32,000 bases of DNA from Mycoplasma mobile 163K (GTDB lineage: Bacteria; Bacillota_I; Bacilli_A; Mycoplasmatales; Metamycoplasmataceae). Shown piece by piece: positions 4,815-13,453 of this stretch; within the stretch, counting starts at the first letter, position 1; every line of letters starts with the position of its first letter. Where the stretch lies: the NCBI RefSeq assembly GCF_000008365.1, contig NC_006908.1, positions 360,001-392,000 on the forward strand, written 5' to 3'. The translations under genes and the position numbers were made by a program. The notes under the pieces were generated by a model. It saw nothing but the letters and a program-made list of their open reading frames with translations. It searched no databases and was not told where the DNA came from.

Positions 4815-6236
4815 TTAAAGATTTTTTTTCAGCTCTTCTAATTTTAAACGTTCTTCAATTTCTTGATCAGTTTCTAAATCAAAAGTTGTTGAAATATATA
4901 GAAAATCATCTGGATGTCTTGTTAAAAAATCACCATTAATAATTTCTATAATTGAATCTATTGTGTCTTCTTTTTTAACAAAAGTTCCTTCATCTTTAGT
5001 AAAACTCGAAGCTGTGAAAAAATTTTGTGAAAAAAAACTTTTTAATTGTAAGGCTTTTTTAACAATAATTTTATTTTCTTCTTCTAAATCATCTAGACCT
5101 AAAATTAAAACAAGATCTTCTAATTCTTTATATTTTTGTAAAATAGATTTTACTTTGATAAAAGCTTCATAATGTTTTTTACCAATTAATTCAGGTTTAA
5201 TGTTATTTGAAGAAGAAGCTAATGGATCAAAAGCCGGATAAATTCCACTAGCAGCTATTTCTCGATTTAAAACTAAAGAACTATCTAAATGTGAAAAAAT
5301 AGCTACAGCTGCTGGATCTGTAATATCATCTGAAGGTAAAAAAACTGTTTGAAACGAAGTTATTGCTCCATTTTGAGTACGATTTAATCTTTCTTGAATT
5401 TTACTTACTTCAGAAATTAAAGTTGGTTGATAACCTGCACTTGAAGGTTTTTTCCCTAGAGAAGCACTTAATTCATTTCCTGCTTGAATATAACGAAAAA
5501 TATTATCGATAAAAACTAAAACATTTCTTTTTTCAAAATCTCGCATATATTCAGCAGCAGTAATTCCAACAGGTAAAATATTCATTCTAGCACCTGCTTC
5601 TTCGTTCATTTGTGAAATGAACATTGTAGAATTTTTTAATAAATCAGCTTCTTTAAGTTCAGAGTATAATTCTTCTCCTTCTCTACTTCTTTCTCCTGTA
5701 CCAATAAAAATTGAAAAAGTCGAATCATCTACTTTTAGTGAATTAAAAATTAATTCTTTCATTAAAACAGTTTTCCCTACTCCAGCTCCTCCAAAAATTC
5801 CTAATTTATTTCCTTTAATTAAAGGCAAGAAGAAATCAATAACTTTAATTCCTGTTTCTATTAATATAGGATTTTGGTTGAATTCAATTTCTCTTTGGAT
5901 GATTGAATTTATAGGAATTGTATTTGGTTCATCTTCAAATTCCTTAGCATTTAAAGTTTCTCCTAAAATATTAAAAACTTTTCCTGCGATTTTTGAACCT
6001 ACTGGAACTTTTAAAACTTCCATTTTATTTGTAACAATATCATTAATTTTAATGGGTCTATTTTGAGTCAAAATAATACATGTTGCAATTTTGGAATTTG
6101 AAATGCTTTCAATTAATAAAACAGTATTATCTTCATGTAAAAAAACAGTTTGATTTATTTTGACATTGTCATCTTGTTTTTCAAAATCAACTTCAATAAT
6201 ATCAGAAGTGATTTTTATTACTTTTCCCTTAATCAT
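4815..6236 (-). CDS. F1-ATPase beta-subunit-like protein (paralogous F1-like ATPase, not the housekeeping atpD context)
   Basis: 473 aa with no in-frame TGA. Motifs present: Walker [20 protein letters not shown] (catalytic Glu region), Walker [43 protein letters not shown], and a DELSEED-like LDDLEEEN. The start overlaps the alpha-like stop (ATGATTAA). Confidence 0.9.
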
Positions 6237-7779
6237 TTTTTACCTCTTTTATTTTTGAATTACCATCAAAATACACTTTGATAAAGTTTTTGTTAATTTT
6301 TAAAACAGAATCGGAATTTTCAAAATAATATTGATTACTTGAATAAAAAAGAAATTCATTAATTAAATTAATGATAAAATTTTTAAATAATTCATTATCT
6401 ATTTCAATTTCATTTTCAATTTTTTCCTTAATTTTTTTAGCTGTTAAATCAAAATCAAAAAAATAATTAATAAAATCAAGAACACTTGAAACATCTTTTA
6501 TATTTTCTAAAATTCTTCATTCGACTAAATTTGAAATAATAATTAAAGTTGTTAAAGTATAGTTACTAAAACCTTTTTGAATAAAAAGATTTTCTAAAAC
6601 TTCTCCTTTAGATAAAATATCAAAAATTTCAGATGAAAAATTATATTTAATTTCACTATATTTTAAATTTCTTTTATAAAGAGAAAATGTTTTAGAAATT
6701 TTTTTACTATATTTTGAAAGAACTTTATTTTGAACTTTAGATCCAGTCCTACTTACACTAAGCTCAATATCAATTGCAGGAAATTTTCCTGAAGCAGCTA
6801 ATTCTGAAGACATGATAATTTGTCCGTCTGTAATTGAAATGATATTACTACTAATTAAACTTGTGATATCTCCTTCAATTGTTTCAACAATTGGTAAAGC
6901 AGTTATTGTTCCTCAATTTTCATTTTTGAATTTACCAGCTCTTTCAAGAACTTTGGAATGTGTAAAAAAAATATCTCCTGGAAAAGCTTCTCTTCCAGCT
7001 GGTTTATTAATTAAAAGAGCCATTTCACGATAAATATTTGCATGTTTAGATAAATCATCAATAACAATAATGACATCATCCCCATTTTTTGCAATATTTT
7101 CTGCATGAGTCATACCAACATATAAAGCAAAAAATTGATGATATAAATTTTCACTACTTGCTTCTAAAATAATTGTATTTTTTAAAACATCAAATTCTTC
7201 AAGTGTATTATAGATAAAATTTATATTAGTTTTTCTTTGTCCGATTGCAACATAAACAGCTTTAGTATTTGTATTTTTTTGACTAATAATTGTATTTAAG
7301 GCAACAGAAGTTTTACCTGTTCTTCTATCTCCAATAATTAATTCTCTTTGCCCTTTTCCTAAAGGGATTAACATATCAATTGAAGCAATCCCTGTTTGCA
7401 CAGGCTCATTTAAACTTTTACGAAACATCATCCCTAAAGCTTTATTAAAAATTTTTCCAGTTCCTATTTTTTCTTCATTTTCATCAATTATGTCATTTGC
7501 TTCGATTGGATATTTTATATGCCCAAAAATATCTATTATTTTTCCATAAAACTTTTGATATGTACTTATTTTTCCAGAATTTTCAACTAAATCTAATTCA
7601 TCATTAATTTTCAATGATTCAATTTCTGATTCAACAAGTAAATTTGCACTATTTACTGAAGCACTTAATAAATAAGCATGAATTTTATTATTGATAAGAA
7701 AAACTTGTGATTGACTATAGTTAAATTCACCTTCTACATAAATAATGTTGTCTTGTATTGATTTGATAATTGGTTTCAT
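6229..7779 (-). CDS. F1-ATPase alpha-subunit-like protein
   Basis: Track ORFs 6913..7779 and 6517..6813 plus the 6229..6516 tail share one frame and are joined by TGA (516 aa, TAA at 6231..6229). Motifs present: [11 protein letters not shown] (Walker A), [12 protein letters not shown], and [28 protein letters not shown]...[13 protein letters not shown]. The C-terminal domain is divergent. Confidence 0.88.
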
Positions 7780-7780
7780 A

Positions 7781-11508: not shown

Positions 11509-12040
11509 TTTTTAATAGCACCTTTTCAGAAAAAAGAATTTTATAACTTTCGTTTTCACTTTTTGTAATAATAAATTTATCAAAAAAATTTATTCCAAAT
11601 CCATTTGAAATTTCAACTTTTACTAATTTTTGAAAATTAGTAAATAAATTATTTTCATTTTTCAAATCAAGACTTATTAAAGAAGATTCATTTGAAGTTT
11701 TATTTTCTAAAACAGGAAAAGCTATTAAATCATTTTTTGCAGATTGTCAAGTAATTATGAAATCTAATTTATCAAAAATTAAAACTTTTCTCGAGTTAAT
11801 TCCATTTTCTAATTTTTCTAAAAATAATTCATATAAATTAGACTCATTTTTCTCATTTGCAATGATAAGCAGGTTTGTCTTAAAATTTTCAACATTTTGA
11901 ACAGGGGATTTTTCTTTATATTCATTAAAATGACTTATAGAAATCGAAACCAATTCATTATGTTTAACAAATTTATTTACTTTTTTCCCCTTTATAAATT
12001 CTAAAATTTTCTTTATTATGTTATTTTTATTTGAGTTCAT
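11492..12040 (-). CDS. hypothetical soluble protein, second gene of the F1-like ATPase cluster
   Basis: Track ORF 11747..12040 ends in TGA and continues in frame to TAA at 11494..11492 (182 aa). The ATG at 12040 lies 3 nt after the stop of the 12-TM gene. The 3' end overlaps the gamma-like ATG by 17 nt. I recognised no motif. Confidence 0.6.
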
Positions 12041-12043
12041 TTT

Positions 12044-13453
12044 TTATCCTTTTATTTTTATATCTTTTTCATAAATGTTTTTGTAATTTTTTGTAATTTT
12101 TCAGAATTTTGTTAAAACTACTAAAAAAGCAATTAAAGACACTATAGATATAATTACATATATTAAAAAGTGAATCCCGCCTAAATTAATAAGGATGCTT
12201 TCAAATTGTCTAAAAATATTGAAAAAAATATTTAATATAATAGCCAAATCAATTATAAGTAATAAACTTGAAAATAGAAAAATTATAAATTTACTAATCA
12301 AAGGTTTTTGCAAAGCAAAAATTATAAATAAAAAAGAAGTTGAAAAAACAGCAATTATAAAAATGAAAGTCCCAATTATGCTTTGTAAATCAAAAGTAAT
12401 ATTAATTATTATTAAAGAGAATCAAATAAGAGAAATAAATGTAGTCAAAACTAATGACCTAACAATACTAGATTTTAATTCTTCTCTACCAAGACGAACA
12501 TAAGCAATAAAAATTAGGACAAGTATTATATTTAAAATCAAAAACAATCATGTTGTAAAACTACCAAAAATTTGATTAAAATTAACCACATTTTGTGTAT
12601 TAAAAAGATTATTTGCTCAAGCATAGGAAAATCAAATAATTGCTCCAAGCACAAAAACTGAACTAAATATAAAAGAGTTATATTTATATTTTTTTTCTAT
12701 ATTAACATATTTAAAAGTATGAACAATCAAAGGTATTTGGAAAATAAATATTACAATAAATAAAACAATTTTCCAAAATATATCAATTGGTGTTGTTAGT
12801 AAAAATCAATTATAAAATCCAAAATTTACTATATTTAATTCTTGTGTAGTATCTGTTAAAATTAAAAAATTCCAAAAAATTCCAATTATAAAAAATAAAG
12901 AACTAACATAAGAAATATAAGAAAATAATTTAAAAAAAGTGTTTCTAGATAGAATAGGATCTGTTTTTTTGGTGTTAATATAAATATATAAATCAAGAAA
13001 AAAATTAATTATTGTTAATCCTAATACCCAAAATAAAGCATAAATTAATCCAAAATAGGTTTTTAATGGAACAAAATAAAAATTGAATATCTGTGCAGCT
13101 AATGAAAATACTAGCAAAAAAATCATTCATATTCAAAAAAGACCAAATCTATCTATTAAGTTTTCAATGTAATTTAACATTTTAGATAAAAAGAAATAAG
13201 TAGCAAAACTCATTATAGCACTATTTACTAAATTAGGGATTGTTTGAAAAAGAGAAACTCCATTTGTTCCTTCAATTGATAAATTAGTTTGAAGTAAAAA
13301 ATCTCCTCAAAAAAATCAAGTAAATAATGAAATCATTAAAATTCATAAAATTATCACAATTTTGTAAATGAAAATAGTTCTCTCTCTTTTTTTAAAAGAA
13401 AATTTTTCAATATCAATATTTCTAAATGTTTTTGATAATTTCGAATCTATCAT
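12044..13453 (-). CDS. polytopic membrane protein (about 12 TM), first gene of the F1-like ATPase cluster
   Basis: ATG at 13453. Track ORFs 12806..13126 and 12101..12313 are in the same frame, with many in-frame TGA. The apparent stop at 12101 is TGA, and the real TAA is at 12046..12044 (469 aa). About 12 hydrophobic segments are visible, rich in F/I/L/W. I saw no similarity to the F0 a or c subunits. Confidence 0.75.

Follow-up and report, generated by a model that had tools for sequence, protein, structure and literature searches.

What a Type 3 F1-like X0 ATPase does in a mycoplasma that lacks the antibody-cleaving pair MIB-MIP is the question raised by a locus of the fish pathogen Mycoplasma mobile 163K, which we analysed within a window of 32,000 nucleotides of the chromosome (NC_006908.1, positions 360,001 to 392,000; all coordinates below are those of the window). 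Seven minus-strand genes, numbered here g1 to g7 from 5' to 3', encode in this order a membrane protein, a small cytoplasmic protein, a gamma-like subunit, a probable epsilon-like subunit, a surface protein, and an alpha-like and a beta-like subunit (Table 1). Our analysis leaves us highly confident that these genes form the Type 3 F1-like X0 ATPase operon in M. mobile, and comparison with a second lineage indicates that purifying selection acts on its F1-like core. The literature already contains the locus, its class and its puzzle, where the M. mobile copy is a recognised exception among Type 3 clusters. This type of cluster was described by Beven et al. (2012), who listed M. mobile with both types and reported, for Type 3 of M. 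mycoides, the operon structure and an ATPase activity in membranes; M. mycoides is also the only organism in which an assembled Type 3 complex has been shown to hydrolyse ATP at the membrane (PMC3369863, PMC12994834). In M. mobile, MMOB2970 was identified as the Type 3 alpha subunit and MMOB2110 as that of Type 1 (Tulum 2020, PMC7052211).

The open reading frames (ORFs) were called with genetic code 4, in which TGA encodes tryptophan; the table-11 list is fragmented and misleading. The original prediction, made from the DNA alone, had placed seven closely packed, co-directional genes in the above order between positions 4815 and 13453, and the table-4 ORFs uphold both the arrangement and its limits, with junctions from g1 to g7 of +3, -17, -35 (+7 with the 166-residue form of g4), -11, +1 and -8 nt. 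The window is AT-rich, with a guanine-plus-cytosine (GC) content of about 20-28%, and at its base composition one would expect 7-10% of codons to be stops; the probability of g5 staying open is about 1e-30, and the ORFs are therefore not a product of chance. The start of g4 is ambiguous: the 180-residue ORF (GenBank AAT27785) overlaps g3 by 35 nt, whereas translation from M15, as in RefSeq and in the Logan gene call, gives 166 residues and a 7-nt gap to g3. The shorter start is also where the alignment with the 154-residue g4 of the relative described below begins, and the length of g4 is probably 166 residues rather than 180. The g1 start codon is preceded, at a distance of 6 nt, by a promoter-like site in the short intergenic stretch that separates g1 from the divergent phosphoesterase gene; it is a consensus match only, of a kind that is not enriched relative to shuffled sequence in this AT-rich region. 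At the other end of the cluster, in the stretch from the g7 stop codon to the glpO promoter, the terminator hairpin predicted at 4731..4760 was recovered as an 11-bp stem (4761-4736) followed by a T-tail, and behind it lies a second hairpin of 18 bp (4727-4689) that the consensus scan also caught. The two together fold with -30.7 kcal/mol (z = -7.66), and none of 200 shuffled sequences was as stable. Hydropathy profiles gave about 12 hydrophobic segments for g1 and three for g5 (residues 5-27, 727-749 and 762-789), in line with the 12 and three transmembrane (TM) helices originally proposed for these proteins, and no TM segment for g2, g3 or g4; g5 contains no cysteine.

Six of the seven products are exact matches, by look-up, to GenBank entries of M. 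mobile 163K (AAT27782-AAT27785, AAT27787 and AAT27788). The product of g3 has 100% identity with the gamma-like protein that RefSeq lists for M. mobile and would correspond to AAT27786; counting from MMOB2970 (alpha), the whole cluster would correspond to MMOB2960-MMOB3020. RefSeq already uses the Type 3 family names for five of the proteins (MSC_0624 membrane protein for g1, MSC_0623 associated protein for g2, MSC_0622 gamma for g3, MSC_0619 alpha for g6 and MSC_0618 beta for g7) and labels g4 and g5 hypothetical, while UniProt lists g2 to g5 as 'Expressed protein', from the 2004 proteome.

We assigned types with the curated cut-offs of the NCBIfam exception models made for this system. The original prediction had placed the cluster among the Type 2 or Type 3 mycoplasma F1-like X0 ATPases, apart from the housekeeping synthase, and the model scores confirm this and settle on Type 3: the beta-like protein scores 687.3 bits against MSC_0618_beta (cut-off 570) and the alpha-like protein 595.1 bits against MSC_0619_alpha (cut-off 520). 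The same holds for the membrane protein g1 (NF045937, MSC_0624_12TM, 143.4 bits, cut-off 70) and for the gamma-like protein discussed below, whereas g2 had no match in the local NCBIfam set of hidden Markov models and was recognised by Pfam (PF10896, DUF2714, 37.5 bits, cut-off 23.9). By these sequence models, family membership is reached for five of the seven proteins, four through NCBIfam and g2 through Pfam. The catalytic equipment that had been predicted for alpha and beta, comprising Walker A and B, the GERxxEG region and a DELSEED-like loop, was also found on reading the motifs. In beta these are GGAGVGKT (149), GERSREG (181), VLVFIDN (239) and a DELSEED-like DDLEEE (382), and in alpha a Walker A GDRRTGKT (150), a Walker B motif (236) and the arginine-finger region SVSRTG (341). 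Flagellar or type III secretion ATPases were rejected as candidates, the FliI and SctN models giving 160-200 bits against cut-offs of about 600.

GenBank and UniProt nevertheless label g6 and g7 'ATP synthase alpha/beta chain', and the beta-like protein reaches 459.5 bits with atpD, narrowly below its cut-off of 462.85, as might be expected of a divergently annotated housekeeping F1F0 ATP synthase (Type 1). This interpretation is refuted by gene content and model scores and has next to no chance of being correct. The Type 3 models are ahead by more than 200 bits, alpha gives only 342.7 bits with atpA (cut-off 484), and M. mobile has another gene, MMOB2110, for its Type 1 alpha subunit, in a separate Type 1 operon (PMC7052211). 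As originally predicted, the cluster has no a, b, c or delta gene: none of the seven proteins has a Pfam match to ATP-synt_A, ATP-synt_B, ATP-synt_C or OSCP (delta). The N-terminal helix of an F1 alpha subunit normally binds delta and holds the peripheral stalk. F1 alpha subunits align with g6 from its residue 8 to their residues 34-42, and since the alignment thus starts only some 26-34 residues in, g6 lacks this delta-binding helix. Its absence agrees with the missing stator genes and with what has been reported for MMCAP2_0576, the alpha subunit of M. mycoides subsp. capri (PMC12994834). What the cluster has in common with the Type 1 complex (atpIBEFHAGDC) is the homologous alpha/beta pair, with Walker A and B, the catalytic Glu and Arg of GERxREG, the DELSEED-like loop and the arginine-finger region, together with a gamma-like shaft; in place of the a subunit, the c-ring, the b/delta stator and the N-terminal helix of alpha, it has three unrelated proteins.

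The second rotary system that could be confused with this one is the gliding motor of M. mobile itself, the Type 2 G1-ATPase (MMOB1610-1670; PDB 9io5), which is encoded in the same genome by a paralogous set of seven genes of like architecture and supplies the closest solved relatives of both alpha and gamma. The best PDB relative of g6 is indeed the G1-ATPase alpha subunit 9io5_D (282 bits, residues 5-494 on 6-500). That the present cluster is this motor, or a part of it, is however refuted by sequence comparison and must be counted as exceedingly improbable. The glide_MMOB1670 model gives 388.5 bits with beta, far from its cut-off of 850, and glide_MMOB1660 gives 418.1 bits with alpha (cut-off 600). 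The 473-residue beta aligns over its full length to F1 beta subunits, with its catalytic motifs intact, but only to residues 298-750 of the 784-residue G1-ATPase beta subunit (9io5_A), and therefore lacks the N-terminal extension of about 230-300 residues that dimerises the twin motor in Type 2. In further disagreement with a role in gliding, a fusion of MMOB2970 to enhanced yellow fluorescent protein was spread through the cell, as was the Type 1 alpha fusion, and not located at the gliding machinery, whereas the Type 2 alpha subunit was found at the gliding neck (Tulum 2020, PMC7052211).

The 286-residue protein had been called gamma-like in the original prediction, and this was borne out by both sequence and structure comparison. 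It scores 159.6 bits with NCBIfam NF045933 (MSC_0622_gamma, cut-off 95), and its match to Pfam PF00231 is collinear, though sub-threshold (E = 2.7e-4). An AlphaFold2 (AF2) model computed from three sequences is of low confidence (pLDDT 47), and its layout follows the gamma plan, with N-terminal helices, an alpha/beta domain and a C-terminal helix of 72 residues. The best 50 Foldseek matches of this low-confidence model in the PDB were all gamma chains of rotary ATPases, headed by the G1 gamma subunit of M. mobile (9io5_G, E = 2.9e-7), to which it aligns over the full length with 14% identity. A gamma fold for g3 is thus supported by the model, at a degree of identity to the gliding subunit that speaks against the two clusters being one and the same.

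A second copy of the cluster was found in a relative of M. mobile. The relative is present in four sequencing read sets, SRR26596549, SRR26596556, SRR26596557 and SRR26596589 (L002 to L005), has a GC content of 22%, and is absent from the GTDB species set that we searched; its ribosomal proteins L21 and L27 share 92% and 84% identity with their M. mobile counterparts. Sequence identical to that of M. mobile is also present in SRR29904083 and SRR29904084. We used the 16.7-kb Logan contig of SRR26596549 (L002), the best contig among the 59%-identical gamma matches in read-set assemblies. On it, all seven genes recur at the corresponding place in the chromosome, in unchanged order and with no interrupted ORF. 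On one side they are flanked by genes for a YqaJ-type nuclease, a DUF2779 protein, rpmA, rplU and the phosphoesterase, and on the other glyS directly follows beta; no MIB or MIP gene adjoins the cluster in this contig. The M. mobile proteins are 47.5% (g1), 55.6% (g2), 59.8% (g3), 42.2% (g4), 37.0% (g5), 73.9% (g6) and 78.2% (g7) identical to those of the relative.

The ratios of non-synonymous to synonymous substitution (dN/dS) between these two lineages are rough Nei-Gojobori estimates, with dS between 0.7 and 1.4 and hence near saturation. For g2 (0.24) and for the alpha, beta and gamma genes they come to about 0.2, for g4 and g1 to 0.37-0.41, and for g5 to 0.73. Neighbouring genes gave 0.13-0.45, and the ATPase core is thus similar to rplU, rpmA and the other housekeeping neighbours. 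The high value for g5 is not spread evenly over the protein: its last 90 or so residues, a two-helix hairpin with a short loop, are 64-68% identical to those of the relative, as against about 30% elsewhere. Among the near-identical strains L002 to L005, gamma shows 2-5 synonymous and 0-1 non-synonymous changes, the substitutions in this comparison being too few to judge g4. Taken at the level of sequence, these patterns indicate that the F1-like core and the membrane anchor of g5 are under purifying selection in the M. mobile lineage and that the exposed part of g5 evolves fast.

These estimates bear on a suggestion made by Berlureau et al. (2026), according to which the cluster may be a relic left after the loss of MIB-MIP, still transcribed and without a selected function. 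The reported absence of MIB, MIP and Protein M from M. mobile fits this suggestion, as does the fact that g4 and g5 are the most divergent members of the cluster, the former falling below its family cut-off, the latter being without homologues and having the highest dN/dS. We nonetheless consider a relic improbable. All seven ORFs are intact in both lineages despite an amino-acid divergence of 22-63%, at a base composition at which stop codons are expected often, and the catalytic residues are likewise intact. The dN/dS of about 0.2 for the core, like that of its housekeeping neighbours, is evidence against a decaying relic, and the conserved hairpin of g5 and the annotation of g2 to g5 as 'Expressed protein' from the 2004 proteome (see also Beven et al., 2012) point in the same direction.

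For M. mycoides, what the Type 3 complex does is known from Berlureau et al. (2026; PMC12994834). The original prediction had described the function of these machines as unresolved, which no longer holds for M. mycoides subsp. capri, where MIB-MIP cannot function without Type 3: protection from agglutination is abolished when the cluster is deleted or the Walker A lysine of beta mutated, and MIB and MIP co-purify with the cross-linked Type 3 complex (PMC12994834). The Type 3 locus of M. mobile is described in the same paper as partly expressed, without MIB/MIP, with a role that "remains cryptic", and as a possible remnant; M. mobile is not mentioned in the supplementary tables. Every strain bearing MIB-MIP (126 of 126) also has a Type 3 cluster, and the converse is not required (Berlureau 2026, PMC12994834). 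The pair is thus an associated feature of Type 3 rather than a defining one, and the association is not found at the M. mobile cluster. No gene of the window gave a MIB, MIP or DUF31 match (the whole genome was not scanned), which agrees with the original observation that neither gene flanks the cluster there, and the literature shows that this is not just a local rearrangement: a 2021 review counts M. mobile among the few species without an immunoglobulin-blocking system (PMC8593674).

Compared with the Type 3 clusters of M. mycoides (MSC_0618-MSC_0624 in subsp. mycoides PG1 and MMCAP2_0575-0581 in subsp. capri GM12), that of M. mobile has the same gene order and likewise no delta, a, b or c subunit and no N-terminal helix on alpha. 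It differs from them in having no MIB or MIP gene upstream or elsewhere in the window, where M. mycoides has four MIB-MIP pairs in the operon, in an epsilon-like protein that falls below the family cut-off, and in a counterpart of Protein 5 with no detectable similarity outside the M. mobile lineage. On this basis, the M. mobile complex would consist of an alpha3-beta3-gamma-epsilon head, with the gamma-like protein as its central shaft and the divergent epsilon-like protein at the base of the shaft, and would do without delta, b, the c-ring and a, its alpha subunit having no N-terminal helix to hold a peripheral stalk. The soluble head would dock on a mycoplasma-specific membrane sector made up of the 12-TM protein and the C-terminal two-helix hairpin of g5, and the DUF2714 protein may be a cytoplasmic accessory. 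Like the Type 2 motor, the complex is presumed to turn ATP hydrolysis into force across the membrane. By analogy with Type 3 of M. mycoides and Type 2 of M. mobile, it would hydrolyse ATP rather than synthesise it and pass the resulting movement across the membrane to a surface-exposed effector. In most mycoplasmas this effector would be the MIB-MIP antibody capture-and-cleavage pair; M. mobile has neither protein, and another partner would be needed.

It is possible, and we put it forward only tentatively, that Type 3 in the M. mobile lineage drives such a different surface effector, either an analogue of MIB/MIP that its sequence does not reveal and that is adapted to fish antibodies, or the ectodomain of g5 itself; a surface-remodelling effector suited to the fish host would be a further candidate output. 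Purifying selection on the core in an organism without MIB-MIP is what one would expect in this case, and the lineage-specific, fast-evolving ectodomain of g5 on its conserved hairpin is typical of a surface working part on a constrained anchor. Protein 5 of the Type 2 system also differs radically (PMC12994834). Against this, no candidate partner gene adjoins the cluster in either lineage, no domain was recognised in g5, and the proposal is an inference throughout.

Several points weigh against our assignment of the cluster to a complete, working Type 3 complex, and the first concerns g4. The original prediction of an epsilon-like protein of about 180 residues finds weak support, in that a match to NCBIfam NF045935 (MSC_0621_epsi) does exist (E = 1.3e-7) and the orthologue of the relative matches the same model collinearly (E = 2.6e-4), while the length probably needs correcting to the shorter form. 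The match reaches only 31.8 bits, however, where the cut-off is 42; an AF2 model built from the single sequence (pLDDT 40) carries no information, and the fold matches obtained with it are meaningless; a two-sequence profile found nothing in the PDB; and in a word-indexed search g4 matched only itself. On its sequence, g4 is probably a divergent epsilon-like subunit. The second point is that g5 has no sequence link to Protein 5 of other Type 3 clusters. It gave no Pfam, NCBIfam or PDB match, only a self match among 5.8e9 word-indexed proteins, and only a self match at E <= 0.001 in an exhaustive HMMER search of 1.84e9 representatives, a library that lacks the 37%-identical orthologue of the relative and is hence incomplete. 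Single-sequence and two- to three-sequence profiles of g2, g3, g4 and g5 gave nothing significant against the PDB. Neither the alpha protein nor the gamma alignment had a match in the GTDB genome collection, in which even exact 8-mer peptides of alpha recovered no M. mobile locus and from which M. mobile and its relatives seem to be absent. The statements that g4 and g5 have no homologue are lower bounds because both the GTDB collection and the 1.84e9 library are incomplete. Equating g5 with Protein 5 rests only on position, size and topology, which fit: a signal or anchor segment, two C-terminal TM helices and 789 residues. To these points must be added the absence of MIB, MIP and Protein M anywhere in M. 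mobile according to the literature (PMC12994834, PMC8593674), because of which the M. mycoides mechanism may not carry over, and the roughness of dN/dS values obtained so close to saturation.

Table 1. Genes and putative signals of the Type 3 cluster of M. mobile 163K, in window coordinates
Feature	Position	Strand	Description
g1	12044-13453	-	469 aa, 11 TGA codons; membrane protein of about 12 TM (Protein 1, putative X0 core), MSC_0624 family; AAT27788 / WP_011264822
g2	11492-12040	-	182 aa; small cytoplasmic Protein 2, DUF2714 / MSC_0623 family; AAT27787
g3	10648-11508	-	286 aa; gamma-like central-shaft subunit, MSC_0622 family
g4	10140-10640	-	166 aa (RefSeq); probable epsilon-like subunit, divergent member of the MSC_0621 family; longest ORF to 10682, 180 aa, AAT27785
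g5	7781-10150	-	789 aa; surface protein, lineage-specific by sequence; AAT27784
g6	6229-7779	-	516 aa; alpha-like subunit, MSC_0619 family; MMOB2970 / AAT27783
g7	4815-6236	-	473 aa; beta-like catalytic subunit, MSC_0618 family; AAT27782
Promoter-like site	13460..13487	-	TTAAAA, 16-nt spacer, TATAAT; consensus scan, 10/12 matches
Two tandem terminator-like hairpins with T-tails	4684..4761	-	sequence read and RNA fold

The surroundings of the cluster differ between the two lineages on one side and are shared on the other. In M. mobile, glpO, glpK and glpF (1175-4643) lie between beta and glyS; in the contig of the relative (compared at 14981-16357) glyS directly follows beta, and the two lineages thus differ by the insertion or deletion of this module for glycerol uptake and oxidation. 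The Pfam match 'MIP' on glpF denotes the Major Intrinsic Protein (aquaporin) family and not the immunoglobulin protease. On the other side, a UU173-family/DUF2779 protein (499.5 bits) and a MAGa7180-family, YqaJ-type putative nuclease (372.8 bits) are encoded at 15663-18243 on the minus strand, beside the ATPase locus in both lineages, and this gene pair resembles a module for DNA processing specific to mycoplasmas. No Rfam family and no tRNA was recognised in the window.

Farther from the cluster, the window encodes a pair of adjoining repeat proteins. The first is an ORF of 259 residues (19417-20196, minus strand) in which a 96-bp unit is repeated 6.4 times at 19428-20040 with 100% identity (score 1226); the unit encodes 32 residues (…PKKNVEQSFVVVKQEDPKRKIGFEYNRNNNYM…), and the protein has no real family match. 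The identity of the copies suggests that the array expanded recently or is still being homogenised, as happens in surface proteins of variable size. The second, of 654 residues (20253-22217, minus strand), contains 243-bp and 123-bp tandem repeats at 20477-21359 with 80-90% matches, which encode …EYIPKKQVNTNNTQEQI(V/I)F… units, and has no Pfam or NCBIfam match. A protein of 1279 residues (28142-31981, minus strand) consists of many modules of about 95-100 residues. Pfam gave one Lipoprotein_17 match for it (PF04200, E = 1.4e-8) and NCBIfam no family; the protein is probably exposed at the surface, and its gene does not adjoin the ATPase cluster.

The F1-like X0 ATPases are rare cases of rotary heads reused to push on something outside the cell, the gliding legs for Type 2 and MIB-MIP for Type 3. 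What our analysis adds to this picture is modest: a second lineage in which the core of the Type 3 cluster is conserved by selection while its surface subunit diverges, which makes a dead relic less likely. As a species with a Type 3 cluster and without MIB-MIP, M. mobile is a natural place to ask for the function of Type 3 itself. If the cluster does drive a different effector in this lineage, Type 3 would act as a general unit that supplies mechanical power across the membrane, and not as a dedicated accessory of MIB-MIP.

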